DNA from: an uncultured Actinomycetes bacterium
GTDB lineage: Bacteria; Actinomycetota; Actinomycetes; Streptosporangiales; Streptosporangiaceae
Length of the DNA: 64,000 nucleotides
Direction: 5' to 3'
Assembly: GCA_963769715.1 (NCBI GenBank)
Contig: CAVYNE010000015.1
Coordinates: forward strand, 89,960-153,959
Shown: positions 3 to 63,999 of the stretch, one piece after another
How the letters are laid out: the number at the start of each line of letters is the position of its first letter
Position numbering within the stretch: the first letter of the stretch is position 1
The notes under the pieces: generated by a model
Seen by the model: the letters and a program-made list of their open reading frames with translations, nothing else
Told to the model about the DNA's origin: nothing
Databases searched by the model: none
Position numbers and translations under genes: made by a program

Positions 3-1034
3 AACCACGAGTACACGGCCGAGACCGAGGTGCTCGAGACGATCAGCGAGAACCAGCCGCCGCCCGCGCCGCATTACAGCCGCCGCACCGTCTTCGTCTT
101 CGTGGACGGCTTCGACCTGGCCACCCTGGCCGCGCTGCGCTACGCCCGGAGCCTGCGGCCCACCACCATCCGCGCGGTGCACTTCGTCATCGACAACGTT
201 CGTGCCGACAAGCTCAGGGAGAAGTGGACCCGGGCGGACCGCGGCGTCACCCTCGACTTCATCGACTGCTCGGACCGCCGGCTGACCCGGGCGGCCGCCG
301 AGCTGGTGGAACGTGAGGCAGCCGATCCCGAGACGCACGTGACGGTCGTGCTGCCCCGGCGCAGCTACTCCGCGCTGCTCGGCCGGCTGCTGCACGACCG
401 GACCGCGGACAAGATCGCCGCGGTGGTGAGCCGCATCCCGCGATCGGCCGCGACCATCATCCCCTACGACGTCGAGAGCCGGGTCCGGGTGCTCGCCGAA
501 CGCCACGCTGCCAAGGCCGCGGCCACCGCTCCGGACCCCGCCGACCAGCACCTCACATCCAGGGAGACGAAGGTGGCCGCCAGCCACAGCTCCGCCGCCG
601 GCCCGGAAGCCAAGCAGCCGCCGGATACGGCAGCGCCCGCTCCGGAATCGGCGGCGAAGGCGAGTGGCCTGCTCAAGAGGAGGGCGCCCGGCGAGGGCAA
701 CGGCCAGCGGCCGGCGCCCGCCGGTCAGGCGGCCGACGCGCCGTCCGCGGTCCCCGGCATCACGCCAATCGGCTCGCTGACCCAACCGGGCCGGGCCACC
801 GTCGAGGGCCGCATCCGCGTGGTGGAGATCAGGCCGGTCGAGCGGAACTCCGTGCTGGCCTGCGAAATCTCCGACGGGACCGGCGAACTCACCGCGATGT
901 TCTACGGGCGCTCGCACATTCCCGGCATCGTGTGCAGCGCCCGCGTCCGCTTCAAGGGCTCGGTCGGCTTCCGGGCCGACGGCCAGCCGGTGATGATCAA
1001 TCCCGCCTACGAGCTACTCTTTCCTGCTGTTTAA
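3..1034 (+). CDS. APC-family permease paralogue, C-terminal part only (5' end outside window): USP-like cytoplasmic module + Ala/Pro-rich linker + OB-fold
   Basis: The frame is open from the window edge (NHEYTAETEVLETISE...) to the stop at 1032-1034. By eye it aligns to the last ~330 aa of the convergent 821-aa permease (VFVFVDGFDLATLAALRYARSLRP vs VIVFVDDFDLSTIAALRYAKSLRP; ATVEGRIRVVEIRPVERNSVLACEISDGTGELTAMFYGRS vs ATVEGRVRVLEIRSVERNSVLACEIADSTGDLTALFYGRS). Confidence 0.75.
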   Translation, partial: NHEYTAETEVLETISENQPPPAPHYSRRTVFVFVDGFDLATLAALRYARSLRPTTIRAVHFVIDNVRADKLREKWTRADRGVTLDFIDCSDRRLTRAAAELVEREAADPETHVTVVLPRRSYSALLGRLLHDRTADKIAAVVSRIPRSAATIIPYDVESRVRVLAERHAAKAAATAPDPADQHLTSRETKVAASHSSAAGPEAKQPPDTAAPAPESAAKASGLLKRRAPGEGNGQRPAPAGQAADAPSAVPGITPIGSLTQPGRATVEGRIRVVEIRPVERNSVLACEISDGTGELTAMFYGRSHIPGIVCSARVRFKGSVGFRADGQPVMINPAYELLFPAV

Positions 1035-1067
1035 CCGAGGCGGTAACACTGGACCGTTCGGCTCAAT

Positions 1068-3533: not shown

Positions 3534-3612
3534 TAGGCTTCTCGCTCCGTCCCAGGCCCTCGGTTGCTGATCATCTCATCCGACGCTATTCGCGAGGCCG
3601 GCGGGCCGCCGT

Positions 3613-5640
3613 ATGCGGCCCGTCAAGCTTTGCGAGCGCGGCGTTAAGGTTCCGTATGGATCGATGATATTGCCTGGTAGCGCGGATGAAATAGCAGGCG
3701 AGATGAGACACGGTCCGCCCAAGCGCGCGATACCGGCGCCCTACGCGCTGCCGGTCGGCTTCGCCATGTTCCTGGCCGTGGGCACGGTGGCCGCCGGCCT
3801 GCACGGCCGCCTGCCCGCGACCGGGGTGCTGATCGCCTGCGCCGCGGTCGCCGGGGCCATGTCGTTCGCGGCCGAGCCGGTCGCGTCGGTCCTGCTGGCC
3901 GGCATCGGCTGGCTCACCACGGTCGGGTTCTCCCGGCCGCCTTACGCGCAGCTGCGGCCGACCGGGCCGGCCGCCGTCCACGCGGCCGTCGTCATCGGCG
4001 CGAGCGCGCTGGCCGGCGCCGCCCTTGGCGTGGTGTTCCGCTGGTACGCCCGACGGCTCACACTGGTAAGCATGGGTACGTATACGGGCATGCGAGCCCG
4101 CCGCCCGGCGCCAAAGGCCCCGAAGGCCTCGAATGGGCGTGGCCAGACGGCGCCGGAGGCCAAGCCAGGCGGCCGGACGGCGACCCTGGCCGGCGCGATC
4201 GGCGCGATCGGCGGCCGCCGGCTCGTCGCGGGCGTGGTCCTCGCCGCCGCTGTGCTGCCGCTGCTCACCGCGGTGCTCGCGGCCTGGCGGCCGCACCTGA
4301 ACCTGGCCGACGACCTGCTCATCTACCTCGTCGCGGTGGTCACGATCACGGTCCTGGGCGGCTTCTGGCCTGCCGTGCTCGCCGCCGTGGCCGCCAGCCT
4401 CCTGCTCAACTGGTACTTCACCGAGCCGCTGCACACGTTCACCATCGCCGAGCCCAAGAACCTGCTGGCGCTGCTGCTCTTCGTGACGGTCGCGGTCGCC
4501 GTCAGCAGCGTGGTCCACCTGTCCGCCCGGCGCGCCGTCCAGGCCGCGCAGGCCAGGGAAGAGGCGGCCGCCCAGCTGGAGCTGGCGCAGACCGTCCTGG
4601 GCGGCGCCGACTCGCCCGCGGCCATTCTCGATCACCTCACCAGGACTCATGGCGGCCAGGCCGAACTGCAGGAACGGGCGGGCGGCCGGTGGGTGCGGGC
4701 GGCCTCGAGCGGCGTCGAGGGCAGCCTGCCCGCGGCCTCGCGCATCGACATCCGCAGCGACCTGATCCTGCTGGTCACCGGGCAGGCCGAATCGGCCACG
4801 CCCGCCTTGCTGGCCGGCTACGCCGCCCAGGCGGCGGCCGCGCTCGACCGCGAACGGCTCCGCACCCAGGCCGCCCAGGCCGAGGCGCTGGCGGAGGGCA
4901 ACCGGATGCGGACCGCGCTGCTCGCGGCGGTCAGCCACGACCTGCGCACGCCGCTCGCCTCGATCAAGGCCAGCGTCAGCAGCCTGCGGCAGACGGACGT
5001 CGAATGGTCCGAGGCCGACCAGGCCGACCTGCTGGCGACGATCGAGCAGAACGCGGACCGGCTCGACGCTCTCATCGGCAACCTGCTGGACATGAGCCGC
5101 CTGCACACGGGATCGCTGCAGCCGTTCCTGCGCCCGACGGCGATCGACGAGGTGGCGCCGGCCGCCCTGCTCGGGCTCGACGACTGCCTGCAGCTCGAGA
5201 TGGCGGTACCCGACGGCTTCCCGCTGGTACTCGCCGATCCCGGCCTGCTCGAGCGGATCCTGGCCAACCTCTTCTCCAACGCGCTACGGTACTCGCCGCC
5301 CACGCTGCCGCCCGAGCTGCACGCCGAGCTGGTCGACGACACGGTGCTGCTCGAGGTGGTGGACCACGGCCAGGGCGTGCCTGACGAGCAGAAGGAGCGC
5401 GTCTTCGAGCCGTTCAGTACCTACCCGAGCGCGCGCGTCGGGCAAGCCGCCGCGCGGCCGCTCACCCGGGTCGGTGACCGCCATCCGGGCGTGGGGCTCG
5501 GACTCGCGGTGGCCAAGGGCTTCGCCGAGGCCATGGGCGGGCGGATCGTGGCCAAGGACACGCCGGGCGGCGGTCTCACGGTCCAGATCTCGCTCCCGGT
5601 GGCGAGCGGGGACAAGTCCGCGCTCGGCGCGGGGTCATGA
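3613..5640 (+). CDS. KdpD-like sensor histidine kinase (membrane/DUF4118-type region + HisKA + HATPase), lacking the N-terminal KdpD/Usp sensor module; start uncertain (ATG 3703 also possible)
   Basis: Membrane segment ...LLIYLVAVVTITVLGGFWPAVLAAVAASLLLNWYFTEPLHTF... H-box AVSHDLRTPLASI. ATPase motifs LFSNALRYS and GVGLGLAVAKGF. The stop overlaps the kdpE-like start (ATGA at 5637). Confidence 0.8.
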   Translation: MRPVKLCERGVKVPYGSMILPGSADEIAGEMRHGPPKRAIPAPYALPVGFAMFLAVGTVAAGLHGRLPATGVLIACAAVAGAMSFAAEPVASVLLAGIGWLTTVGFSRPPYAQLRPTGPAAVHAAVVIGASALAGAALGVVFRWYARRLTLVSMGTYTGMRARRPAPKAPKASNGRGQTAPEAKPGGRTATLAGAIGAIGGRRLVAGVVLAAAVLPLLTAVLAAWRPHLNLADDLLIYLVAVVTITVLGGFWPAVLAAVAASLLLNWYFTEPLHTFTIAEPKNLLALLLFVTVAVAVSSVVHLSARRAVQAAQAREEAAAQLELAQTVLGGADSPAAILDHLTRTHGGQAELQERAGGRWVRAASSGVEGSLPAASRIDIRSDLILLVTGQAESATPALLAGYAAQAAAALDRERLRTQAAQAEALAEGNRMRTALLAAVSHDLRTPLASIKASVSSLRQTDVEWSEADQADLLATIEQNADRLDALIGNLLDMSRLHTGSLQPFLRPTAIDEVAPAALLGLDDCLQLEMAVPDGFPLVLADPGLLERILANLFSNALRYSPPTLPPELHAELVDDTVLLEVVDHGQGVPDEQKERVFEPFSTYPSARVGQAAARPLTRVGDRHPGVGLGLAVAKGFAEAMGGRIVAKDTPGGGLTVQISLPVASGDKSALGAGS

Positions 5641-6314
5641 CGCGAGTGCTCGTCGTCGACGACGAGCCGTCCATCCTGCGCGCGCTGCGGATCAACCTCA
5701 GCGCGCGCGAATATGACGTCAGCACCGCTACCGACGGCACCACCGGGCTGGCCGCCGTGGCCCGCGACCGCCCCGACGTGATCATCCTGGACCTCGGCCT
5801 GCCCGACATGGACGGCACCGAGGTGATCCACGGCGTCCGCGGCTGGACCTCGATCCCGATCATCGTCCTGTCCGCGTGGGGGCAGGAGAGCCAGAAGGTG
5901 GCCGCGCTCGACGCGGGCGCCGATGACTACGTGACCAAGCCGTTCGGCATGGACGAGCTGCTCGCCCGGCTCCGCGCGGCGGTCCGCCGGGCGTCGCCCG
6001 CGCCGGACGAGCCAGTGGTCGCGACGGCCGACTTCACCGTGGACCTGGCGGCCAAGCGGGTCGTCCGCAGCGACGGCAGCGACGTCCGGCTGACTCCCAC
6101 CGAGTGGCAGCTGCTGGAGATCCTGGTCCGCAACAGCGGCCGCCTGGTCACCCAGCGGCAGCTGCTGCGGGAGGTCTGGGGCCCCTCGTACGAGACGGAG
6201 AGCAACTACCTGCGGGTCTACCTGGCCCAGCTGCGCCGCAAGCTGGAACCCGAACCCTCCCGGCCCAGGTACCTGCTCACCGAATCGGGCATGGGCTACC
6301 GGTTCAAGCCGTAA
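5637..6314 (+). CDS. kdpE: OmpR-family response regulator, KdpE-type
   Basis: MTRVLVVDDEPSILRALRINL...DVIILDLGLPDMDGTEVI...IPIIVLSAW...KVAALDAGADDYVTKPFGMDELLARLRAAVRR, plus a winged-helix C-terminus ...YLRVYLAQLRRKLE...GMGYRF. Confidence 0.85.
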   Translation: MTRVLVVDDEPSILRALRINLSAREYDVSTATDGTTGLAAVARDRPDVIILDLGLPDMDGTEVIHGVRGWTSIPIIVLSAWGQESQKVAALDAGADDYVTKPFGMDELLARLRAAVRRASPAPDEPVVATADFTVDLAAKRVVRSDGSDVRLTPTEWQLLEILVRNSGRLVTQRQLLREVWGPSYETESNYLRVYLAQLRRKLEPEPSRPRYLLTESGMGYRFKP

Positions 6315-45349: not shown

Positions 45350-46329
45350 TCAGCTCGTGTAGCCGACCTCGGACCAGTCGACCGCCTCTCCGGCGTACCA
45401 GTTTATTCCGGTTATGTTCCTACGCGTGCTCACCTGGAAGCCGGGCTGCGCGATCCAGAGCCAGGGGGCATCGTTCGCGATTATCTGGGCACAGCGCTTG
45501 TGCTCCTCGACCCGCTGGTCCCAAGTGAGTTGGGGGCGCCCTGCCTCGGCCAAGCAGGCGTCGGTCTTCGCGCTCTTGTATCCCCCCCAATTGTTGGAGC
45601 TCTTCGACTGGTAGAAGACCCCCAGCGCGTAGGCGGGGTCCGGCGTATCGGCCCCAAAGGTCTGGAAGAACATTGGCCGCTTGCCAGTGAACAGCGCTTG
45701 CGTGAACGTCGGGGGCGGGAGCGCTTCGAGCTCGAGTGTCACTCCGACGTCTGCGAAGGCGATCCGGAGCTGAGTGCCTATAGGCTCTCCGAGCGGTTCC
45801 GCGGTGCTGTAGGCCAATGTCGTCTTGAACCCGTTCCCATGGCCGGCCTCCCGCAAGAGCTCACGCGCCCGTCCGGGGTCGTAGGTGTACGGGCTCAGGT
45901 TAGGGTCGAACCCGGCGGCGTGATCCGAGAGCGGGCCGTGGGCCGGCCCGGCGAACCCTCGGTAGACCTTCTCGAGGATCTGCGGATAGGGCGTCGCGTA
46001 TGACAGGGCCTGCCGGACCCGGGCGTCGCCGAGCGGCGGGTACTTCGGGTTCATGGGACACGACGCGATGACATAGCCCCTGGAAGTTCCACAGGCGCAG
46101 GTCATTGCGGTTCTCTACTCGTTGCATGTCCGTGGGCAGCAAGTACTCAGCGGCCTGCGCTTCTCCGGTCATCAGCATGGCGAGCCTGTTGGACGACTCC
46201 GGCACCTGCCTGAACGTGATCTGGTCGAGCTTCGGAGGGAAGGGATGCTCCTTGTGGGCCACCCATACGACATGGCGCCCAGGGCTGAGGTCAGCGAGCT
46301 TGAACGGGCCGAAGCCCTCACCGGGGGGG
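45350..46329 (-). pseudogene. Family-5 (peptide/nickel-type) ABC substrate-binding protein gene remnant: frameshifted and lacking most of the N-terminal lobe
   Basis: GPFKLADLSPGRHVVWVAHKEHPFPPKLDQITFRQVPESSNRLAMLMTGEAQAAEYL is in one frame. NPKYPPLGDARVRQALSYA...WLWIAQPGFQVSTRRNITGINW is in another, with the shift near 46080-46100. No signal or N-lobe sequence was recognised. Confidence 0.7.
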
Positions 46330-52076: not shown

Positions 52077-52847
52077 ATGGCGGCACAGGCACAGGCACAC
52101 GACATCGTTACCGCGGCGAAGGCGCGGCCACCGCGGCGCGGGGACCCCGGGGCACGGCGCGGGGACCCTGGGACGGTCCAGCTCAGCCAGCGCGACATCG
52201 ACGGGCTCCTGCTCTGCGGCGAGCACTACGGAGTCCCGTACGATCTGCTCGCCGGCGCGCTGCGCGTCCACTCCAAGCGGCTGGAAAAGATCACGGCCCG
52301 GTGGCGCCGCGCCGGGTACGTGGCCACCGGGCGGCTCGGCCCGGGCCCGTCGTGGTGCTGGCTGACCCGGGACGGGATGACCGCCACCGGGCTCGGCTTC
52401 CCCGCGGGCCGCCCGGCCCTGGCCCGCCTGGCGCACATCCGCGCGGTCCTGGCCGTCCGGCTGTGGCTGGCCGCCGGGCCCGCCTGGACGGACGGCCGGG
52501 CGTGGTGGCACTCCGAACGGCGGCTGCGCGCCGCCCAGCCGGCGGCCGGCCGCCACGAGCACATCCCGGACGCCGAGATCCACTGGCCCAGCATCGAGGG
52601 CAGCCCGTATGCGGGGCAGGTCTGGGCGATCGAGGTCGAGCTGACGCCCAAGCCGATCGCCCGGACCGCCGGGATCATGACCGGGCTGCTGACCCCGATG
52701 CAGTACGCCACGGTCGTGTACCTGACCGCACCGGCCGCCCGCCCGGTGGTCCTGCGGGCCGCGGCCTCGCTGCCGCCCGGGGAGCAGGTCAGGGTCGCGG
52801 TCCGGGACCTGCCGGCCGCCGCGTTCACCCCGGAGCCGTCGCGATGA
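52077..52847 (+). CDS. Replication-relaxation (Replic_Relax)-family protein
   Basis: LSQRDIDGLLLCGEHYGVPYDLLA (wHTH-like), LAHIRAVLAVRLWL, and a PD-(D/E)xK-like HIPDAEIHW...VWAIEVELTPK. The stop overlaps the next start (ATGA). Confidence 0.6.
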   Translation: MAAQAQAHDIVTAAKARPPRRGDPGARRGDPGTVQLSQRDIDGLLLCGEHYGVPYDLLAGALRVHSKRLEKITARWRRAGYVATGRLGPGPSWCWLTRDGMTATGLGFPAGRPALARLAHIRAVLAVRLWLAAGPAWTDGRAWWHSERRLRAAQPAAGRHEHIPDAEIHWPSIEGSPYAGQVWAIEVELTPKPIARTAGIMTGLLTPMQYATVVYLTAPAARPVVLRAAASLPPGEQVRVAVRDLPAAAFTPEPSR

Positions 52848-54728
52848 GCGTCTGGTCATGGCTCAAGCTGAGCGTGTGCCTGTGGCTGCTGCGCAAGATG
52901 ATCAAGGGGACAGGGTGGCTGCTGCTGGCCGGCCTGGCGGTCGCCGTCTGGCCGGTCACCGCCGTGGCGGTCACCGGGTACGTCGCGGCGTGGCTGCGCG
53001 GCTGGCCGCCGGTCCGTTTGGGCCGCGTCGCCGCCGCCGCCCTGCCGCTGACCGTCATCTGGCTCGGCGCCGAAGGAGCCCGGCATACCGCCTGGCAGGC
53101 CATCGCGCTGGCTCCCGTCCGGGACTGGGCGCACGGGTGGCACCACCTCACGCTCACCGGCGTGACCCGGACGTTCCTGCTGGTGGCCCCGGTCGCGATC
53201 CCGGTCGGGCTCGGGCTGGCCGCGCTGGCGTGGGGGTGGCGGATCTACGCGCTGACTACCGGGATCGGCGGCTGGCTCGCCTCGGCGCCGATCACGTTCG
53301 ACGCCCGGCAGTGGAAACATCAGGTCCGGACGGCCAGGGGCCGGACCGCCGCCCCGGGCAGCGTCCCGTTGCTGGCCCGGGGCGCGCGGATCGGTGTCGG
53401 CGGCACCATCCGTGCCATCGGGCACCGCTGGCACCCAGTCTTCACCGTCCCGCACGCGGCGTGCGCCCGGCACATGGTGATCGTCGGCGCGACCGGCAGC
53501 GGGAAGACGAACCTGATGATGCGGCTGTGGGCCGGCTGGTTCACCGCCGCCCTGGCCGCGGCCCGGCCCCAGAATGCGGGGCGGGGCCACCGGCCGCTGC
53601 TGGTCGTGCTGGACTGCAAGGGCGGACCGGACGCCCGGACCAAGGCGAACCGCACCCGCCGCCTGCTGTACGGCGCGGGCGCCCGCCGCGTCGCGATCTG
53701 GCCCGACGAGGCGCGGCTGTCCCTATGGAATCTTCCGCCGAACGATCTGGCCGTCTTGCTCTACCAGATGATCGACAGTGGCACCGGGGCGGCCGCCTAC
53801 TACGCCGACATCCTGCAGGCCGTCCTCACTCTCGCCATCATGGCGCCCGGCGGCCCGCCACTGAACGCGGCCGCGTTCACTGATCGCCTGGACGTTAGGT
53901 GGCTACAGCGCGCCTGGGGGGACGGCCGGCACGCGGAGGAGCTGGCCCGGGTGCGCGGCGCGGCCCGGCACCTGCCCGACATCCAGCTCCGGTTCGCCAC
54001 CCTGCTCGGGCGGCTCGGCCCGGCGCTGGACGGCCCGGGGACCCTGGCCGACGCCGACGCGTGGTACTTCATCCTGGAAGGCACCCGCGAGCCGTCGGTC
54101 GCCGAGGCCCAGGCCATGGCCATCACCGAACTGGCCGCGCACGCGGCCACGGACCTGGCGAGCGAGCCGCGGGCGATGCTGCTGGCCGCCGATGACTACA
54201 GCGCCGTGTCCCGCCGGGTGCCCCTGTCCAACCTGTACGAACGCGGCCGGTCCCTGGGGATAGGAGTGCAGGTTTCCGCCCAGACCTGGCAGGGCCTGGG
54301 CCGGGACGAGGACGAGCGGTACCGGATCGCGGCCACCGCCGACGGCGGCATCTTCCTCATGCACACGCCCCACCCGGAGCCGCTGGCCGCGCTGGCCGGG
54401 CAGCGCCGGGTGCTGCAGACCGCGCACGAGTTCGTCGGCGCCACCTGGGGCGACCGGGGCACCACCCGGGAGGGGCGGGCCTGGAACGCCGACCCCGACC
54501 TGATCCGCCGCCTGCAGGTCGGCCAGGCCTGCTACATCCACCGGGGCGCGGCCACCTTCGTCCAGGTCGCCCGGCCCGTGGCCTCCCCGCTCGGCCTGCT
54601 CCCCGCGCGGGTCCCGGTCGACCTGCCCGCCCCCCGCCGGGAAGCCGCTGTCCGCGGTATCCGGGTCCGAGCCGATCCCGGCCAACCTCAACGATGTCCT
54701 CGGACCTGGAGGCTCCCGATGGCCGTGA
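52844..54728 (+). CDS. Type IV coupling protein (VirD4/TraD/TraG-like), apparent frameshift near a C6 run (54630-54635)
   Basis: N-terminal TM helices, Walker A VGATGSGKTN, LLVVLDCKGG, MLLAADDYS, and RGRSLGIGVQVSAQTWQGL. After ~54640 the G/C third-position bias moves to the +1 frame, which ends at TGA 54726-54728 (...PIPANLNDVLGPGGSRWP*). Confidence 0.65.
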
Positions 54729-55235
54729 ACCCGTTCGACGCGCTCGGCCTGCCGGCCCGTCCCGACCTGACCGATGAGCAGGTCCGCGCCGCCTGGCGCG
54801 CCATCGCCGCCGCCACCCACCCGGACCGGCCCGGCGGCGGGGACGTCGCCCGCTACACTGCAGCCACCGCCGCCTACGCCGTGCTGCGCACGCCCTGGGG
54901 CCGCAGCGAGGCCTTCGCCGACTTGGGCGCTGACGATCGACGACACCACTCCGCTACCCGCCGTCGATGCCGCCGGCCCGGGGCCCGCCGCCCGGCCGTC
55001 CCGGCCATCCTGGTCCGCCCGGCCGGGGGATCTGATCGCGGCCATGGGGCAGCTGCCCGCCCGGATCCGTCACGGCCGCCCGCTGCGCCTGGTCATCCGG
55101 GCCCTGGCCGCCGCGCTGCTGTGCCTGGCCGTGCTGGCCTTGATCCCCGGCCAGCCCGCCGCGCCGGCGCTAGTGACCGGCCTGATTACCTGGTTCCTGC
55201 TTACCGGCCGCTCGGACCTGGCACCCCCGCCGTAG
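54719..55235 (+). CDS. J-domain (DnaJ-like, HPD motif) protein with hydrophobic C-terminal part; needs a frame change near 54900-54930
   Basis: ATG 54719 comes after GGAGG. MAVNPFDALGLPARPDLTDEQVRAAWRAIAAATHPDRPGGGD...AAYAVLRTPWGR. The downstream codon bias and TM-like LRLVIRALAAALLCLAVLALIPG...LITWFLL lie in the +1 frame, which ends at 55235. Confidence 0.5.
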
Positions 55236-55288
55236 TCCGGGTGCGCACCAAGGCTAATACCGATACTGCCTTATGGTCCTGATGATGA

Positions 55289-56757: not shown

Positions 56758-56925
56758 TTCGCGCTCTCTTCCTCAGCGTGGCCGCGATGCCCGCAGAGCC
56801 GGCACCTAACAAGCAGTTCTACTCCATCCGCCCCGACCGTAACGAGCCCCTGCGCACGGCATGCCGACCACCGAGGCCGAGACGATCAACGCCGACCTGC
56901 TTACGCCGACGCTCTCTCCCTGGCG

Positions 56926-57345
56926 TCATACTGCGCATGTGGGGGTGCGGGCTAACGACTCGGCGTCGTGGAAGTCACGCGTGTAGTCCGACCGGGGAGC
57001 CGGAAGCACGACCTCCAGACGCGAGCCCGACTCGGCCAGCAATTCGCGCGCCACCAGTCGGTCGGCCCCCTCGGCCAGGGAAGACACCGCCACCAGGACA
57101 ACATCCGAGCCTGCGCCCTCCGGGAGCATGTCCCTGAGCAGTCGCACCGCCTCCCGGATAGCCGGGACGAGCGCCTCCGGATCACCCAGGCATCGATGCC
57201 CCGTTATCCCGATCCGGAGAACAAACGGGATCCTCCCCTGGCCGTCCGGGCGGAGCCCGGCAGCCTGGTCATCGCCGCCAGGCATAGGACGGGCAAGGGA
57301 ACCCGTGTGATTACGGCTGGCGCTGTTCAATCGTCGGCCCCTCAA
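56926..57345 (-). pseudogene. Truncated SLOG/DprA-LOG-like Rossmannoid domain gene (motif-level assignment)
   Basis: RIGITGHRCLGDPEALVPAIREAVRLL...VVLVAVSSLAEGADRLVARELLAESGSRLEVVLP...DYTRDF, then a premature stop. No continuation in other frames. Confidence 0.4.
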
Positions 57346-57398
57346 GATGCAGGCATTCCGGATTAGGAATTCGCTAATGCCATTCGTCTAAGTCCATA

Positions 57399-57740
57399 TC
57401 ACTGCCTGCACAGTCGCTGGTACGGTAGTTGAGGATATAAGTTTGTCACTGCTGGGCCGCGAGTTCCGGCTGTGGTACAGATCCGTTTAGTAGCGTAATC
57501 GACGTTCAGGTTCCGTAGCCGGATCGCCCCGTCAATGATGCCGCTGGCCAGCGCGTGGCCATCTGGGCTGAACGCGACCGATACGGCAGCGCCAATGCCG
57601 TCGGTCAGGAGCGGCCCGAGCAGGTGGGGGGCGCCGGATCGGCGGCATCGGTCAGCCAGACATTGCCGTCCAGGTCAGCACTCGCCAGCGTACGGCCATC
57701 GGGGCTGAACGCCACAGCCAGGACAGACTGGCATCGCACT
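57399..57740 (-). pseudogene. C-terminal remnant of a WD40-repeat protein gene, frameshifted at a G6/C6 run (57626-57631)
   Basis: SVLAVAFSPDGRTLASADLDGNVWLTDAADPA, then a shift, then LLGPLLTDGIGAAVSVAFSPDGHALASGIIDGAIRLRNLNVDYATKRICTTAG...LPYQRLC* (stop at 57399-57401). This is the typical C-terminal ending of actinomycete STAND-WD40 proteins. Confidence 0.7.
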
Positions 57741-58343
57741 GTGCTGCAGCAGATCCATATCATCGATGCTGTCCGATCGCTCTTGCGATGTGTTTCTCCG
57801 CTCAGCACGTGGAAGCTTCAGCAACTCCCATCGGCCCAGTCCAGAGGGCACCTTTCGCGTCGACGCGCCCGACCGCAACCCTATTTACGCGGTGGATTAA
57901 CGCTTAGTGCCACGGACAACCTGCCCGCCGGAAAGTCGATGCTGGTCCTGGGCGAATCGGAGCGGCTCGCAGGTGGATCTAGAAGGCGCTCGAACGGCCA
58001 GACGTCGACGGAGAGGCTACATGTTGGCTCGCTCGGCGTTATCATCCAGTGTCGGCAGGTGTCCAGATCACAATGCCTGGTTCTGGGCATGCCCAGTAAG
58101 TGACGGAGTTCCTGCACCGGCCCAGCGGCGCTCTCGGTTTGTGGCGTAGGAGGAACAGCAACTGGCCCGGTGTGGTGCGATTCCATGAAATGGAGTTGAT
58201 CATGTTGACGCTCACGCCGGGCCTAATGCCGTTCACGCCAACTCTACGCGAAACAGTAACACTCTGACCTTCTCGGCGTATACTGGCTAAGAGGAGTGCA
58301 AGGGGGAATCTTGGGCTACCCGGTCGGTCAAGCGTCGTGCCTC

Positions 58344-58378
58344 GCCGAGCGCACGCTCGGCTTGGATTTGGTTTTCCC
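58344..58378 (+). terminator. Intrinsic terminator-like hairpin upstream of the TIR-SIR2 gene
   Basis: GCCGAGCG ca CGCTCGGC followed by TTGGATTTGGTTTTCCC. Confidence 0.5.
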
Positions 58379-58630
58379 GCTGTTGTTGACGGACGTGGTT
58401 GTTCAGCGGGCTTTCCCTGATACGCGGGCTTCTCTGCGCTGGGCCGGTGCCGGTTGCGGGCTGTACGCACGTGTCGGCCCGCGTCGGGTTCAGCGGCCGG
58501 AGCAGCGCGTCTTGGGTCGCGTTACACCCCAGGCTCTGGAAGCTCGGCGCTCGTGTCCGGGGATCGGCACAGTTTCTGTCGGGCTCCAGTCGGATCGGCA
58601 ACCCTAGACCAGGGCGCGCAGGGGCAGGGC

Positions 58631-60169
58631 ATGGATATGGGTGGCTCGCACGAGACCGAAGGCGGCTTTTCTGATACGCCGCCAGCCAAATCGCCACTTA
58701 GGGTCTTCATCAACTACCGCCACGAGGACACGCAAGGCACGGCGTGGGCGCTTTATATGAAGCTCGAGGTCCGGTTTGGCGCTGAGAACGTGTTCTTCGA
58801 CAACGGCACACTCCGGCCGGGGATGCTATGGCTGAACGAGATCAGATCCCATCTGGCCGACGGTGGCGCGTTCATCGCGCTGATTGGACAGAACTGGATG
58901 CCGAGCCTGAGAACTCATCTGCACCGCGGTGGCGAGGACTATGTCTCCAAGGAGATCGACCTTGCCCTGCGCAGCGGCCCACGAATGATCGTAATCCCCG
59001 TACTAGTGGACGATACCGAGCTGCCGAATCCTCGCGAGCTTCCGCCGTCATTGAGTAAGCTTTTGGATTGCCAGCAAGAGCGTTTGCGCCACACGCACTT
59101 GCGTCATGACATCGACCATCTGATTGCGCGCCTCGGTGAGGCTCGAGACGAACCGGAACCGGTCGTCGTGGGTCCTGTTCATCCACCTCGGCGGCGTACT
59201 GGGTCCGAGTTCGTTGCTCCGCGTCCTGATGAAGATCACTACCGAATGGTGGCCAGGCATGCCGGCAACCTCGTCGTCTTCCTCGGCGCGGGCGCGAACG
59301 CGGACCGCGATGAGCCCTGGTCGCCGGGCTCGGGGATGCTCCCCGACGACCGGGACCTTGCGAAGTACCTCGCGTCGCACGTTGGGCTGAAGGGCGCGCC
59401 CATGCACTTGGCTGAAGTCGCGCAATATGCGGGTGCGGTCTACGGTGAAACGGAATTGTTCGACTGGATCACTCAGGTTCTGAAGGTCGATTCAGAGCCG
59501 AGCCCTGTGCACAGATATCTCGCGCATCTTCCCGAACGACTAGGAAGACGCTGCCAGATGATTGTCACACCGAAGTATGACGCGGTGCTGGAAAAGGCAT
59601 TCAGGGAAGCAAACGAGGACTTCGACCTAGCCGTCTACATGGCCCCCGGGACAGAACAGGCAGGCAGGTTCGTCCACCTGCCATGGGGGGAGCTTCCGCG
59701 GCCAATCGACAAGCCCAACGAGTACGCGGGGTTTCCAATCGCCGCCGAGGACCGCAGGCTGCAGCGCACGGTGATCGTCAGAATCAGCGGCGCGGTTGAT
59801 GATCCGTCGGCAGGCTTCCCATGGGAAGACAATTACGTGATCACCGAGGATCACTATATTGACTACCTGAATGGCCGCTCGGCGGAGGAGGCCGTGCCCA
59901 GCCAGCTCCTCGCGAAGTTGAGGAAAGCAAACTACTTGTTCCTCGGCTACACGATCGCCGATTGGCGCCTCAGGGTCTTCCTGCAACGGATCTGGAAGGG
60001 CGCCAGACTCGGGCGCGCCAAGTACTGGGCGGTCGAGCAGGAGCCTGACGTGCTCGAGAGAGACCTCTGGCAGCAAGCGGGCGTCAGCCTCTACCAGAGC
60101 AGCCTGACCGATTACCTGAAGGGACTTTACGACTTCCTCGATGACCACCCCGGCGAAGCGCAGCGATGA
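58631..60169 (+). CDS. TIR-domain / SIR2-like (SIR2_2-type) two-domain protein
   Basis: TIR: LRVFINYRHEDTQG...ENVFFD...FIALIGQNW...DYVSKEIDLAL...VIPVLVDD. SIR2_2-like: NLVVFLGAGAN, IVTPKYDAVLEKAF, VIVRISGAVDD, NYVITEDHYIDYL, YLFLGYTIADWRLRVFL. Start chosen at ATG 58631, with the RBS weak. Confidence 0.85.
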   Translation: MDMGGSHETEGGFSDTPPAKSPLRVFINYRHEDTQGTAWALYMKLEVRFGAENVFFDNGTLRPGMLWLNEIRSHLADGGAFIALIGQNWMPSLRTHLHRGGEDYVSKEIDLALRSGPRMIVIPVLVDDTELPNPRELPPSLSKLLDCQQERLRHTHLRHDIDHLIARLGEARDEPEPVVVGPVHPPRRRTGSEFVAPRPDEDHYRMVARHAGNLVVFLGAGANADRDEPWSPGSGMLPDDRDLAKYLASHVGLKGAPMHLAEVAQYAGAVYGETELFDWITQVLKVDSEPSPVHRYLAHLPERLGRRCQMIVTPKYDAVLEKAFREANEDFDLAVYMAPGTEQAGRFVHLPWGELPRPIDKPNEYAGFPIAAEDRRLQRTVIVRISGAVDDPSAGFPWEDNYVITEDHYIDYLNGRSAEEAVPSQLLAKLRKANYLFLGYTIADWRLRVFLQRIWKGARLGRAKYWAVEQEPDVLERDLWQQAGVSLYQSSLTDYLKGLYDFLDDHPGEAQR

Positions 60170-63100
60170 GCGAGCTTCCAGGAACGGTTAGGCCTCGCGA
60201 CTGCCCGTACGTCGGCCTAGATTTCTACCAGGAGAAATTCGGTGCCTGGTTCTTCGGACGGGAGGCCGAGCGCGACAAGATCATCACTAACCTGCAGGCC
60301 GCCCGCCTGACGCTCCTGCACGCCGAGAGCGGCGTCGGCAAGAGTTCGCTGTTGCGCGCGGGTGTCGCGTGGCAGCTGCGCCGACAGATCACGCGCCGGG
60401 GAACCCTCCAGGGCGCAGCCGTTGACGTCCCGGTCGTCTTCAGCTCGTGGCAGGACGCTCCCGTCCTGAAGCTAGTCGGGGCGATCCGAGAGGCGATCGA
60501 GCCGTTGGTGACCGGCCATTCCGAGCCCGAGCTGCCGACCCATCGGCTCGACGCCGCAATCGAGGCGGCGGCCGACGTCGCGGACGCTGGCCTGCTCGTC
60601 ATCCTCGACCAGTTCGAAGAGTACTTCCTCTACCGTTCCCGAGAGCCCGTCCCCGAGCAGTTTGCTGATGAACTCGCCCGCTGCGTCAACCGGGCTGATC
60701 TTCCCGTCAATTTCCTTATCGCGATCCGCGAGGACGCGTATGCGGGCTTGGGTGACCTTTTCAAGGGCCGGATCGCCAACGTCTACGGAAATTATCTCCA
60801 CATCGACTACCTCGATCGGGCGTCGGCGGAGAGGGCGATCCGGCAGCCCCTTGCGGTCTACAACGGCCAGCCTGGCATAACTGAGCGCGTCGAGATCCAA
60901 GACGAGCTCGTCGAGGCGGTGCTCGACCAGGTAAGGGCCCATGATGTCAGCGACCTGGTCCAAGGCGAGGCGACGGCCGCTGACGGCGGCGGGCGTATCG
61001 CGACCCCGCTGCTGCAACTGGTGATGGAGACGATCTGGCAGCGAGATCGCGACGCGGGCTCCCGTGAGCTGCGGCTGGCGACGCTGCAGAACCTGCAGGG
61101 CGTCGAGAAGATCGTCGATACCCATCTTTGGAAGGCGCTCCGCGCCCTTGGCGGCCGAGAGCGCCAAACCGCGATCGACGTGTTCGACCACCTCGTGACC
61201 CCTTCAGGTGGGAAGATCGCGGAACCGGTCCCCGACCTGGCGCGTCGGACTGGTCACAGTGAGGAGCAGGTCGGCAGCGTCTTGGAGAAGCTCGATCATG
61301 CGCGTGTGGTCAGGCCACTCCCGGCGCCGCCGGGCCAGGATCCCCAGCGGTTCCGCCGCTACGAGATCTTCCACGACGTACTCACGCCGGCGATCAACCG
61401 CACGATCGCTGTACGTGAGGAGCGGCGCCGCGCGCGGCGGTTCCGACGCTTGACTGCGCTAGCAGTCAGCCTGCTGATCGTGACCACGGCGATCGGGGGT
61501 GGCATCTTCTACTTGTATCGCACTGCGATTACCCAGAAGCAGGCCGCGGATTCGGGCCAGTTGGCCGCAGCTGCGGACGCGAACCTCGCGCGCGATCCAG
61601 AGCTCAGCGCACGGCTGGCTCTGCAGGCACTGCGCCTGCGCTACACGAGCGCGGCGGAGGCGGCGCTGCGGGACGCGCTCCCCAAACTTCAGGCGGTGCG
61701 GACGTTCCAGGACGGGACTTTGGTGTTCTCGGCAGCATTCGATCCAGTCGACCCGAACAAGGTCGCCAGCGCCGATAAGGATGGAGCAGCCTGGATCTGG
61801 GACGTCCGGACCGAGCGCCGCCTTGTGCGCCTGGCACCCGTGGGCGCCTCCGGGAATGCTGGAACCGCCGACACTGTGGCCTACAACCCGGCCGGTACCA
61901 AGGTAGCGGTCGGCTATGCAAACGGCACGGTGGCCTTGTTCGACGCCGCCAGCGGGAAAGAGCGGCAGCCGATCACAGTCGGACCGGTAGTCACGATCAC
62001 GGTCGGACCGGTAGTCAAAGGTGTCCAGTTCGTCGGGAGCACCGGCGAGCTGGCGATCGCAACGCAGCGCGGTGTCGGCCTGTGGCTGCCCGAGTATGGG
62101 TCAAGGTGCTGCGACATCCTGTCGCGGACCGAGCAAGCAAACAGCATCGCCGTCGACCCAGGCAACCCGCTGGAGTTCGCCGTGGCCACGGACAATGGCA
62201 CGGTCATCTGGACCCTGCGAGGCGACCTAAGCCCCGCGCAACACAGATCGCTAGATACGCGCTCCGACAACGATGCGGAGTTCAATCCAGACGGCAGGGA
62301 AGTCGTAACCGCTGCCACCGACGGGAAAGTGCGGGTATACGACCTCGCCACCTTTCAGGAGAAAATGACCCTCGACGCGGGCGAGGCTAACGTCCTGAAT
62401 GCGGCGTTCAGTCCGGACGAAACGCGGATCGTGGCAGCGTACTCGAGCGGGACGGCGCGCGTATGGGACGCCTCAAGCGGACTCCCGTTGGCGCTGCTCG
62501 TCGGCCACGCCTCGTCTGCCGGGAGCGCCAGGTTCAACGCCGACAGCAACGAGGTGGTGACGGCAGGCAATGACGGCACGATCCGTGTCTGGCAGGCCCA
62601 GCCGCGCGAGCTGCGGACCGCGTTTCCCAGCTCGTTCAGCGGTGGCAGCCCGAACCTGCCGAACCCTGTTTATGCGGCCAAGTACAGTCCTGAGGGCGGC
62701 CGGATACTCACCGTTGACAGCTCGGGAGCTGCCTACCTGTTCACGGCCGGCGGCGAGCCGGTCTACTCCCACGGCCTGCCGGTCCTCATCTACCCCGGCG
62801 CGAAAGTGAACTCGGCGCGGTTCAATCGCGCCGGCACGGAGATAGTCACGGCCGACTCGGACGGGACGGTAAACCTGTGGAATGCCGGCGGCCCGGACTA
62901 CGCCCAGATCCGCCTTCCGGTACCGATCCACCTGAAGGGCCCGGCGGACTACGCCGATTTCGGTCCAGATGGGTCCCAAATGGTAATCGTGACCAGCGAT
63001 GACAAGGTGGAGGTACGAAGCACCCGGACCGGCCAGCTGCTGCGGACGCTCAATCCCCAGCACGGATTTCCCCTCTCGGTGGCCGTGTTCAGCCCAAACG

Positions 63101-63999
63101 GGCGACAGATCCTCACTGGGGATGGCAACGGCCAGGTGGAGATATGGGACGCCGCCACTGGACGCGAAATCCGGGTGCTTGACACACCTGGTCCCGTCAG
63201 CGACGTTGAATTCAACAGCCGCGGCAGCGAGTTCGTCACCACGTCTGATAGCGGCGCGGTAACTATGTGGTCCGCGCGCGACGACCGGCCGCTGAATGGC
63301 CCGTTCAATGCGTGCCCGACACCCAGCACAGCCTCGTTCAGCCCCGATGGCAGCAAGCTGGTGGTTGCCTGCGGGAACGGCAACGTGCCAGTGTTCAACA
63401 CCGTCACCGGCCAGCAGCTAACTGCGCTGCCGGCAACCAGCGCAGGGACTGCCAACAGTGCCGAATTCAGCCCGGACGGCAAGAGCATCGTCACGGCCAT
63501 CGGCGGCGAGGATAGCGGTGACGTGCGGGTCTGGAATACCGAGCTCGCGACAGCCTCGCTTCAGGCCCTCGAACTGGAGGCTGCCGGGAGCGCCGTGAAA
63601 CCGGGTTTCGCCTCGACCGCCAGTCCAGAGGCCGCGATCCTGAACGGCACCTGGACCGGCTCCTACGACTGCCCCCAGGGTGCGACCGGGCTCAGCCTTG
63701 TGATCCATGCGATCCCTGGCGGCACCCTCACGGCGGCATTTAACTTCTATGCCGTCCCGCATCACCCTAGTATTCAAGGCAGCTTCACGATGACCGGTAC
63801 CTACTCGGCCGCGGGAGTTGATCTGAGCCGGAGTCAATGGATCAGCATCAGCCAACCCTTCGAATACATCATGGTGGATCTCAGCGCTGGCCTGCCCGCC
63901 AAAGGCGGGACGGTCCTCAGCGGCCATGTCGCGACTCCAGGACTGAATGTTTGCACTACCTTCGCCGTGACAAAATCCGCTTCGAGCGGGTCAGGTTGA
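60166..63999 (+). CDS. nSTAND-type P-loop NTPase - hydrophobic helix - ~14 WD40 repeats - unassigned C-terminal domain (1277 aa)
   Basis: CPYVGLDFYQEKFGAWFFGREAE, Walker A ESGVGKSSLLRAG, Walker B LLVILDQFEEYF, PLLQLVMETIW, and hydrophobic LTALAVSLLIVTTAIGGGIFYLY. Repeated ...FSPDG...(V/I)(R/E)(V/I)WD... units. ATG 60166 overlaps the upstream stop (ATGA). Confidence 0.9.
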   Translation: MSELPGTVRPRDCPYVGLDFYQEKFGAWFFGREAERDKIITNLQAARLTLLHAESGVGKSSLLRAGVAWQLRRQITRRGTLQGAAVDVPVVFSSWQDAPVLKLVGAIREAIEPLVTGHSEPELPTHRLDAAIEAAADVADAGLLVILDQFEEYFLYRSREPVPEQFADELARCVNRADLPVNFLIAIREDAYAGLGDLFKGRIANVYGNYLHIDYLDRASAERAIRQPLAVYNGQPGITERVEIQDELVEAVLDQVRAHDVSDLVQGEATAADGGGRIATPLLQLVMETIWQRDRDAGSRELRLATLQNLQGVEKIVDTHLWKALRALGGRERQTAIDVFDHLVTPSGGKIAEPVPDLARRTGHSEEQVGSVLEKLDHARVVRPLPAPPGQDPQRFRRYEIFHDVLTPAINRTIAVREERRRARRFRRLTALAVSLLIVTTAIGGGIFYLYRTAITQKQAADSGQLAAAADANLARDPELSARLALQALRLRYTSAAEAALRDALPKLQAVRTFQDGTLVFSAAFDPVDPNKVASADKDGAAWIWDVRTERRLVRLAPVGASGNAGTADTVAYNPAGTKVAVGYANGTVALFDAASGKERQPITVGPVVTITVGPVVKGVQFVGSTGELAIATQRGVGLWLPEYGSRCCDILSRTEQANSIAVDPGNPLEFAVATDNGTVIWTLRGDLSPAQHRSLDTRSDNDAEFNPDGREVVTAATDGKVRVYDLATFQEKMTLDAGEANVLNAAFSPDETRIVAAYSSGTARVWDASSGLPLALLVGHASSAGSARFNADSNEVVTAGNDGTIRVWQAQPRELRTAFPSSFSGGSPNLPNPVYAAKYSPEGGRILTVDSSGAAYLFTAGGEPVYSHGLPVLIYPGAKVNSARFNRAGTEIVTADSDGTVNLWNAGGPDYAQIRLPVPIHLKGPADYADFGPDGSQMVIVTSDDKVEVRSTRTGQLLRTLNPQHGFPLSVAVFSPNGRQILTGDGNGQVEIWDAATGREIRVLDTPGPVSDVEFNSRGSEFVTTSDSGAVTMWSARDDRPLNGPFNACPTPSTASFSPDGSKLVVACGNGNVPVFNTVTGQQLTALPATSAGTANSAEFSPDGKSIVTAIGGEDSGDVRVWNTELATASLQALELEAAGSAVKPGFASTASPEAAILNGTWTGSYDCPQGATGLSLVIHAIPGGTLTAAFNFYAVPHHPSIQGSFTMTGTYSAAGVDLSRSQWISISQPFEYIMVDLSAGLPAKGGTVLSGHVATPGLNVCTTFAVTKSASSGSG
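61972..62019 (+). repeat. In-frame 24-bp tandem duplication (ITVGPVVT / ITVGPVVK) inside the WD40 region
   Basis: atcacagtcggaccggtagtcacg / atcacggtcggaccggtagtcaaa. Confidence 0.95.

Follow-up and report, generated by a model that had tools for sequence, protein, structure and literature searches.

STAND NTPases oligomerise on activation, and the bacterial STAND or NLR-like immune proteins so far known to be characterised (Avs, bNACHT) consist of one chain each and detect phage proteins within the cell; the sensors of Avs bind these proteins in the cytoplasm. In Thoeris, it is the TIR protein itself that senses infection, and TIR NADase sites form across TIR–TIR interfaces, as in SARM1, plant TNLs, SPARTA and ThsB. 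Pairing of TIR with SLATT has been validated by experiment as type VII Thoeris, with cyclic ADP-ribose as the signal (bioRxiv 10.64898/2025.12.03.692087). Two-gene STAND systems coupled through EAD/EACC domains have been treated by Kaur et al. (2020, eLife, PMC7159879; 2021, eLife, PMC8195603), and the nSTAND1 family of NTPases was defined in the later of the two papers. Here we analyse a two-gene pair at the end of a 64,000-nucleotide stretch of contig CAVYNE010000015.1 (assembly GCA_963769715.1, positions 89,960 to 153,959; hereafter the window), which derives from an uncultured bacterium of the Streptosporangiaceae. Gene A encodes a TIR domain followed by a SIR2-like domain, and gene B encodes an nSTAND1 NTPase followed by a hydrophobic helix, WD40 propellers and a beta-barrel. 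Taken together, the computational data support the idea that the pair is a variant of STAND/TIR systems in which a pseudo-sirtuin adaptor is combined with an outward, exchangeable sensor and with swappable outputs.

A conserved two-gene unit

The two genes lie on the forward strand and overlap by four nucleotides:

58631..60169 (+): gene A, 512 aa, with a TIR domain, a flexible linker and a SIR2-like domain (open reading frame (ORF) with translation, and Pfam)
60166..63999 (+): gene B, 1277 aa, with an nSTAND1 NTPase, one transmembrane helix, 14 WD40 blades and a C-terminal beta-barrel
60166..60169 (+): ATGA overlap of the stop codon of A with the start codon of B, read directly

A longer frame for gene A, starting at a TTG at 58454, is also possible; the ATG at 58631 is favoured because 26 homologues begin at the aligned position. 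The last full codon of the window is the stop codon of gene B, and hence the view ends at B. The G+C content at third codon positions (GC3) is 0.73 in gene A and 0.79 in gene B versus 0.89–0.93 in the genes of the backbone, which suggests horizontal acquisition. A preliminary description, made from the letters of the window alone, had given these coordinates, protein lengths and translational coupling, and they were borne out, together with the weaker GC3 bias, the positions of the TIR glutamate (E108 of A) and the Walker A lysine (K59 of B), the estimate of about 14 blades (14 blade-ending motifs were found) and the domain calls (TIR_2, SIR2_2, nSTAND1 and WD40), all of which scored above the Pfam cut-offs.

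To place the pair among its relatives, we collected loci with either A or B as the seed; they come mostly from related soil metagenome-assembled genomes (MAGs), some of which carry long-read frameshifts. The A-seeded survey, in which one genome per species was scanned, returned 80 loci, nearly all of them in MAGs of uncultured soil Actinomycetota (Gaiellaceae, Solirubrobacterales, Thermoleophilia, Trebonia), with one in a bin labelled Acidobacteriaceae. The adjacency described for the window recurred throughout: a SIR2-like gene stood directly 5' of an nSTAND1 gene in about 79 of the 80 loci, a count that overstates independence because the loci are related, and the distance from the stop codon of the one to the start codon of the other was mostly about −3 to +30 nt. 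Every non-truncated locus of this set encoded an nSTAND1 homologue followed by a transmembrane segment and a propeller. When B was used as the seed, the SIR2-like gene adjoined upstream in every informative locus, with RskA_C (L084, L085), CHASE2 (L086), NHL-type (L091) or WD40 (L090, L094) sensors on the NTPase and, in L092, with no assigned sensor. TIR_2 and SIR2_2 were found right upstream of relatives of B with other C-terminal domains, with a 4-nt overlap in L084–L086 and a 3-nt gap in L091. Homologues of gene A form more than 1100 full-length clusters, as do those of its partner B.

The domain in front of the SIR2-like domain proved to be variable. Among 50 partner proteins that were scanned, SIR2_2 was present in 50, preceded by BTAD in 43 and Trans_reg_C in 41 (together the SARP module), by TIR_2 in three and by an XRE-type helix-turn-helix (HTH) domain in one (L008, with 84% identity in the SIR2 part). 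The SARP-type relatives match the NCBIfam AfsR model (E 6e-59), and a TIR domain precedes the SIR2-like domain in only about 20 of the 80 loci. The SIR2-like domain is therefore the constant partner of the NTPase, encoded directly before it. Since it never changes, whatever the N-terminal domain that precedes it, we infer that the NTPase docks onto this domain.

The closest relative of the window pair, L094, has genes of the same lengths, with B 78% identical over its full length and the pair intact (78–90% identity). Because L094 keeps this intact pair without the SLOG-SLATT gene described below, the two genes form a stable unit under purifying selection, to which SLOG-SLATT is an accessory.

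Two further observations were made in the course of the survey. In L092 (138–3850; GCA_044233465.1), the arrangement is minimal: a response-regulator receiver gene is followed by genes for a 317-aa protein with SIR2_2 only and for an nSTAND1 protein, the last two overlapping by 4 nt. Two database proteins annotated as SIR2_2 with nSTAND1 (P0185, P0208), which could have served as fusion evidence, were set aside, as their junctions and internal stretches look like frameshifted read-through over the stop/start overlap of the pair in long-read MAGs.

The TIR domain retains its catalytic glutamate and the SIR2-like domain is predicted to be inactive

Protein A comprises two folded parts:

58703..59140 (+): TIR domain, about residues 25–170, with the catalytic-type Glu108; sequence and fold matches to SARM1
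59216..60145 (+): SIR2-like domain, about residues 196–505, predicted to be inactive, with K315 in place of Asn and S386 in place of His

The TIR_2 Pfam model matched residues 25–141 (E 2.8e-10, 41 bits, cut-off 28). In an hmmsearch with a profile of 27 homologues, the best solved relative was the TIR domain of SARM1 (E about 2e-7), in which the Glu of the 'KEI' motif aligns with E108 of A; this residue is invariant in the 27 relatives. An AlphaFold2 (AF2) model of A (pLDDT 75.6, with the linker at 174–192 disordered) likewise matched the SARM1 TIR domain in a Foldseek search (TMt 0.80). A TIR fold and a catalytic-type glutamate, the two marks of an enzymatic TIR domain, are thus both present, and the domain is predicted to be of the NADase type.

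The SIR2-like domain is related by sequence and fold to SIR2 domains of defence proteins. SIR2_2 matched residues 310–487 (E 2.1e-14, 54 bits, cut-off 24.5), and Foldseek matched the C-terminal two thirds of A to KomC, ThsA, DSR2, SIR2/HerA, SPARSA and the EfAvs5 SIR2 domain (E 7e-11 to 1e-6), with E values of 7e-11 to 1e-7 and a TMt of about 0.65 for KomC, ThsA and DSR2. The catalytic Asn (TTNYD) and His (KLHG) of defence-type SIR2 domains, which NAD+ hydrolysis requires, were absent from the corresponding motifs of A, which read TPKYD and RISGA. In the HMMER alignment, 'VITTNYD' of DSR2 is opposite 'IVTPKYD' of A, which puts K315 at the position of the catalytic Asn. His171 of DSR2 lies just ahead of the aligned block KGFKGENVVLKEDDY / AGFPWEDNYVITEDHY and corresponds to the S of 'RISGA' (S386), an equivalence placed by eye from the residues that flank the block. 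At position 315, the 27 close relatives have K (22), N (three), Q (one) or T (one); at position 386 they have N (19) or S (eight), and His occurs in none of them. PDB entries of KomC and DSR2 mutants have His-to-Asn or His-to-Ala changes at the His position, and such changes inactivate these enzymes.

The remainder of the domain has been preserved. The Gly-rich 'FLGAGAN' loop is retained in A, and mean pairwise identity among relatives is 0.645 for the SIR2-like domain versus 0.601 for the TIR domain, with the SIR2-like domain the more similar of the two in 283 of 351 pairs; between A and its counterpart in L094 the values are 90% and 81%. Since L014 and L018 combine a TIR domain with a SIR2 domain that retains both Asn and His, and since SARP-type relatives keep the His and about half of them the Asn (with a degenerate Gly-rich loop), the loss of catalysis appears to be a derived trait of the clade to which the window belongs. 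As judged from these distant alignments, the SIR2-like domain of A is predicted to be a catalytically dead pseudo-enzyme, for which a role as adaptor or regulator fits better than that of a second NADase. The conservation of the fold while the catalytic residues have gone argues for a structural or ligand-binding role, and the pseudo-enzyme may still bind a nucleotide.

Gene B probably encodes a single-pass protein with an outward sensor

Four parts follow one another along protein B:

60205..61449 (+): nSTAND1 module including a winged-helix region, residues 14–428, with Walker A K59 and Walker B D148
61450..61518 (+): transmembrane helix LTALAVSLLIVTTAIGGGIFYLY, about residues 429–451, with the Arg-rich stretch REERRRARRFRR ahead of it
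61678..63573 (+): 14 WD40 blades (two 7-bladed propellers), predicted to be extracytoplasmic, matched by Pfam WD40 and beta-propeller models
63640..63978 (+): C-terminal 8-stranded beta-barrel with two conserved Cys, about residues 1159–1271, of an extracytoplasmic domain family

The nSTAND1 Pfam model (PF20703) matched residues 14–428 with an E value of 1.2e-41 (144 bits, cut-off 27.1), which places the NTPase in this family. Walker A (GVGKS, K59) and Walker B (LDQFEE, D148) are present in about 90–93% of 68 homologues, the rest having truncated starts. Because only 12–13 residues precede the CPYVGL...FFGRE motif, B has no N-terminal effector or adaptor domain; as the preliminary description had it, the output resides on A as a separate polypeptide.

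A hydrophobic 19-mer is found at the same place in essentially all complete homologues of B, down to 37% identity. Over 67 homologues, the mean number of Lys and Arg residues was 6.3 in the 15 residues before this segment versus 3.5 in the 15 after it; the count was higher before than after in 62 of the 67 and lower in one, which is the positive-inside signature of an N-in/C-out helix. Beyond the helix, WD40 was matched with an E value of 2e-42, and the blade-ending motifs were read across about residues 510–1136. Close relatives of the NTPase (46–74% identity) carry RskA_C, CHASE2, SH3_3, NHL or DUF4397 instead of WD40, and one has a weak match to PASTA; membrane sensors carry domains of these kinds on their outer side.

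Pfam and NCBIfam scans of the last 138 residues of B gave no match. This C-terminal domain belongs to a family of 1230 representative clusters at E<=1e-3, and in small homologues a signal peptide, lipobox or membrane anchor precedes the domain in 32 of the 38 informative cases. In Ser/Thr kinases the barrel stands after the transmembrane segment, at times in tandem (P0241, P0257); P0290, P0262 and P0321 are further members of the family. Its two Cys are nearly invariant, and the AF2 model of the domain (pLDDT 88) has eight strands, with weak similarity to lipocalin-like folds including the periplasmic domain of ToxS (E 1e-3 to 3e-2). No further hydrophobic segment was found in B between the propellers and the barrel, which puts both on one side of the membrane. 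Three independent lines of evidence, the conserved helix with its positive-inside bias, the exchangeable sensors of exported type and the extracytoplasmic barrel family, together indicate that B is probably a single-pass protein with the NTPase inside and the WD40 sensor outside the cytoplasm. This type II topology is a strong prediction from the helix, the charge bias and the families of the ectodomain.

The preliminary description had envisaged a different arrangement, in which a ligand is sensed by the WD40 propellers, by implication within the cytoplasm as in Avs, and had described A as a double NAD-related module. On such an Avs-like reading, WD40 would bind a phage ligand in the cytoplasm and the NTPase would activate a double NADase with both TIR and SIR2 catalytic. 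The domain families are indeed those of known NAD+-depleting defence proteins, and the pairing and translational coupling are real. Against it stand the replacement of the SIR2 Asn and His (K315 and S386, with no His in 27 relatives), the conserved membrane helix with positive-inside bias between NTPase and WD40, a C-terminal domain whose family is secreted or membrane-anchored, and the sister proteins with CHASE2, RskA_C or NHL in place of WD40 or, in one, a weak PASTA match. With the hydrophobic helix read as a membrane anchor and the C-terminal parts as extracytoplasmic types, and with only one of the two NAD-related domains retaining its catalytic residues, we regard an Avs-like sensor as highly improbable.

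SLOG-SLATT and other neighbours of TIR-type loci

Upstream of gene A and divergent from it, the window holds the remnant of a third gene:

56926..57345 (−): SLOG-SLATT stub, a truncated 5' end of about 100–139 codons, divergent from A and 45% identical to a protein of L009

The ORF of 139 aa contains a 'GITGHR...SSLAEGAD' motif and matches the N-terminus of a 612-aa SLOG-SLATT protein encoded directly after B in L009 (45% identity, E 9e-16); everything past codon ~100–139 is missing from the window, and an alpha/beta-hydrolase gene starts 170 nt beyond the stub. In full-length relatives, a weak YAcAr match and motifs that were read by us point to an N-terminal SLOG-like domain, which is followed by two C-terminal SLATT modules; in L006 both SLATT_1 and DUF4231 exceed their gathering scores, and the NCBIfam SLATT_1 model gave 44 bits (cut-off 41). 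The gene is intact in six related loci and is divergent and upstream in L006, L007 and L015, as in the window. With the stub of the window counted, it occurs in the retrieved flanks of 7 of 21 non-redundant TIR-type loci versus none of 59 SARP-type loci (Fisher p = 3.7e-5, for loci that are not phylogenetically independent).

Other neighbours of the pair were seen in a few TIR-type loci, namely caspase and trypsin genes in L086 and TPR-S and LSDAT genes in L087. A gene for a TrkA_N (NAD-binding Rossmann) and RyR protein of about 600 aa adjoins the TIR-SIR2 gene in three loci that differ otherwise, L005 (7970–9778), L087 (3340–5076) and L090 (7023–8840), with MAP3K_TRAF_bd/TPR-S and LSDAT (SLOG-family) genes coming next in L087. 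In L003 and L004 (about 400–6000, on the upstream side of the TIR-SIR2 gene), there are genes for an FxSxx-COOH peptide, a radical-SAM protein and a TPR/DUF7779 protein, as well as a protein in which TIR_2 flanks a ParA-like (AAA_31/VirC1) stretch, a second TIR system adjoining the first. Clustering of the flanking ORFs was also used to look for a third gene conserved across all loci and returned only the lineage synteny of SARP-type loci (uvrB, coaE, rpsA); within TIR-type loci, the clusters were SLOG-SLATT (6–7 loci), TrkA_N-RyR (three) and an MFS transporter (five, probably by chance).

Surroundings of the pair in the window

Between the stub and gene A lies a further short ORF:

57605..57808 (−): isolated WD40-repeat fragment, a 67-aa ORF (Pfam WD40, E 7.6e-6), in DNA of non-coding appearance with low GC and no frame bias

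This fragment could be all that is left of a further propeller gene. A decayed sister copy and a mobile genetic element (MGE) remnant had been noted beside the pair. Of the former, the WD40 fragment and the truncated SLOG-SLATT gene (56926–57345) stand as decayed sequences; a copy of A or B itself does not, as tblastn at E<=1e-3 gave only self matches in the window. The latter found no support, since 56760–58630 contains no tRNA, no transposase or integrase domain, no Pfam match other than the WD40 fragment and no plasmid similarity beyond a 49-nt match. This match (56853–56901) is 88–94% identical to DNA within alpha/beta-hydrolase genes on Azospirillum and Burkholderia plasmids, and it adjoins the 5' side of the alpha/beta-hydrolase gene.

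Further upstream, 52077–55282 (+) holds a 256-aa ORF without matches and then a P-loop protein of about 810 aa, with weak matches to a DUF87/HerA/CedB-type Walker A and to an HscB J-domain-like region; the frame of high GC3 shifts near 54.85 kb, pointing to either a frameshift or gene overlap. At 45350–46114 (−), an SBP_bac_5 ORF spans profile positions 204–367 only and looks truncated. The genes at 46–51 kb have a GC3 of 0.82 versus about 0.91 in the backbone.

Such surroundings raise the question of whether the pair is itself a decaying remnant, a horizontally acquired operon that has lost its function. The truncated SLOG-SLATT gene and the orphan WD40 fragment directly upstream, the truncated SBP_bac_5 gene, the frame change in the ORFs at 52–55 kb and the low GC3 would all agree with this. 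By contrast, both ORFs of the pair run without a break through their 512 and 1277 codons, the TIR Glu and both Walker motifs persist, and L094, at 78–90% identity, holds an intact pair of the same length without SLOG-SLATT. We therefore think it improbable that the pair is a remnant.

A proposed scheme and its weighing

We propose, with an intermediate degree of confidence in the scheme as a whole, that the locus is an envelope-facing STAND receptor system with TIR output. B would reside in the membrane, with its nSTAND1 NTPase in the cytoplasm and its WD40 propellers and lipocalin-like barrel outside. A, co-produced with B through translational coupling, would be cytoplasmic and docked to the NTPase by its SIR2-like domain. 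Binding of an extracytoplasmic ligand to the ectodomain (candidates being a component of a phage or competitor at the envelope, or envelope damage) would turn the NTPase to an NTP-bound oligomeric state, as in other STAND proteins, and the attached TIR domains would then cluster into active NAD+-cleaving sites around Glu108. The output would be NAD+ depletion or a signal derived from ADP-ribose. Where it is present (in about a third of TIR-type loci), the SLOG-SLATT membrane protein could act as a signal-activated killer, as in type VII Thoeris; because this gene is a stub in the window, the output here would be NAD+ cleavage itself or an unlinked effector. The scheme starts from what the sequences show, namely the domain make-up, the absence of the SIR2 catalytic residues, the conserved pairing, the membrane helix with its charge bias, the exported character of the barrel family and the link to SLOG-SLATT; from these we infer the contact of A with B through the SIR2-like domain, the oligomeric switch, the kind of ligand, the product of the TIR domain and any immune role.

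Several observations weigh against such a system, in particular against its immune role. Most of the wider family has a SARP DNA-binding output, and in Gaiellaceae and relatives (L022–L083, e.g. L034 15941–18532, L063 4197–5093, L075 2912–4603) the SARP-type pairs sit in a conserved rpsA-coaE-...-uvrB arrangement; this housekeeping synteny and the SARP majority look like ordinary signal transduction and not immunity. The other genes around the pair in the window are metabolic and regulatory, with no recognised defence genes found there by PADLOC and domain scans, and the family is essentially absent from viral contigs, where a single match at 21% identity was obtained. The defence-island setting assumed for the locus in the preliminary description is thus not upheld. 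No SLOG-SLATT gene was found within 12 kb of L094, so that the signalling branch would be no more than an option. WD40 propellers of the Pfam type are seldom exported, the case for lost SIR2 catalysis comes from alignments at about 15–20% identity, and the kinship of the surveyed loci means that the counts and the Fisher test overstate independence.

Some of these points favour the main rival, a non-immune transmembrane system true to the name STAND ('signal transduction ATPases'), in which an envelope or external cue (nutrients, cell-wall state, development) would be relayed to transcription through SARP or HTH outputs or, in the TIR version, to an NAD-derived messenger or NAD+ control, in physiology or developmental cell death and not against phages. 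With it agree the SARP, AfsR-type output of 43 of 50 partners (AfsR itself consisting of SARP, STAND and TPR), the synteny of the Gaiellaceae loci between rpsA/coaE and uvrB, the response-regulator gene ahead of the pair in L092, the classical signal-transduction ectodomains among the sensors (CHASE2, RskA_C, weak PASTA), and the absence of both a defence-island context in the window and a presence on viral contigs. The TIR-type clade, however, gains neighbours of conflict type (SLOG-SLATT; caspase/trypsin in L086; TPR-S/LSDAT in L087; FxSxx-COOH/TIR in L003). To our knowledge, every characterised bacterial TIR NADase acts in defence or as a toxin; this and the low GC3, which points to horizontal acquisition, also speak against purely regulatory signalling, and we consider such signalling unlikely for the TIR-type pair. 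The chassis may nonetheless serve regulation where the output is SARP and conflict or cell death where it is TIR, so that the two readings are compatible.

Apart from this arrangement of pairs, a SARP fusion of the Trans_reg_C-BTAD-guanylate cyclase-AAA_16-TPR type often lies near the syntenic Gaiellaceae pairs (L053 1–4134).

Comparison with known systems

The preliminary description knew of no characterised system of this composition, and PADLOC v2 and NCBIfam (June 2026) likewise held no model for A or B, with SLOG-SLATT covered by the generic SLATT model only. No description of a SIR2-like and nSTAND1 pair, a TIR-SIR2 fusion or a CHASE2-STAND-TIR protein was found in the text of the literature, supplementary tables not having been searched, so that a prior listing is possible.

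The locus resembles Avs and other TIR- or SIR2-STAND proteins, as well as bNACHT, in combining a STAND NTPase with an NAD+-directed effector fold and a repeat sensor, and the SIR2-like domain of A matches that of EfAvs5. Unlike in Avs, the effector has a gene of its own, the NTPase is of the nSTAND1 type, the SIR2 domain has no catalytic residues and the sensor lies behind a transmembrane helix, with a predicted location outside the cytoplasm; no Avs hit was returned by PADLOC, and the single-polypeptide composition of Avs is not that of the locus.

With Thoeris (type I, ThsB TIR and ThsA SIR2-SLOG; type VII, TIR and the SLATT effector ThsH), TIR-type loci share the set of TIR, SIR2, SLOG and SLATT domains. 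Here, by contrast, these are arranged as TIR-SIR2 and SLOG-SLATT fusions, and sensing would presumably fall to an additional component, the membrane STAND receptor. Models of ThsA and ThsB gave partial domain matches only (PADLOC ThsA 30 bits, ThsB 15 bits; NCBIfam ThcB4 15 bits against a cut-off of 220), which leaves the proteins outside these families, and in the window the sole candidate for a paired Thoeris effector is the SLOG-SLATT stub.

The EAD/EACC two-gene STAND systems are similar in that a variable effector is coupled to an adjoining NTPase-sensor gene, in that they include the same nSTAND1 clade, and in their preference for soil bacteria with complex life styles. In those systems an EAD is on both partners; here, B has no N-terminal domain and a constant SIR2-like fold of about 310 aa is on one partner. 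No shared adaptor of the EAD/EACC type was found on A and B (tblastn of A against the window, self match only). The main text of the two papers by Kaur et al., as distinct from their supplementary tables, did not contain the pair. The EACC1 systems, considered as a possible match, were rejected because their composition differs, with a transmembrane EACC1 protein and a caspase protein (Kaur et al. 2020).

Most relatives of A resemble AfsR-type SARP-STAND transcription regulators, as they have the SARP module of AfsR and a STAND NTPase for a partner. In the window, TIR takes the place of SARP, the output and the NTPase are on separate polypeptides that would be bridged by the SIR2-like domain, and a membrane-anchored ectodomain stands in place of the cytoplasmic TPR.

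If the proposed scheme is correct, NLR-like signalling in bacteria would reach out to the cell surface by way of an exported sensor that can be exchanged, in a large family (more than 1100 clusters for each partner). Were the pair immune, attack would be detected before or at entry, and we know of no characterised bacterial STAND system that does so. The SIR2-like domain would be a second example, after ThsA, of a sirtuin fold wired to a TIR enzyme, in this case as a dead adaptor. The swapping of TIR, SARP and HTH outputs on one chassis would amount to a natural experiment on evolution between immune and regulatory STAND proteins. In addition, the C-terminal barrel of B defines a large extracytoplasmic family that has no Pfam model and occurs also on Ser/Thr-kinase receptors and lipoproteins.

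The logic of an extracellular repeat sensor, one transmembrane helix and a cytoplasmic TIR domain is shared, by analogy only, with Toll-like receptors, and the TIR domain of A is closest to that of SARM1, in which a non-catalytic domain regulates TIR. No homology is implied for the sensor or the architecture, and the locus differs in having a STAND NTPase interposed and the TIR domain on a second protein. It is tempting to see here a bacterial counterpart of Toll-like-receptor logic, with an outward STAND receptor, exchangeable ectodomains, a pseudo-sirtuin tether, TIR output and an optional SLOG-SLATT pore, on a chassis re-used with SARP and HTH outputs; we offer this wider comparison tentatively and think it rather more apt to fail than to hold.

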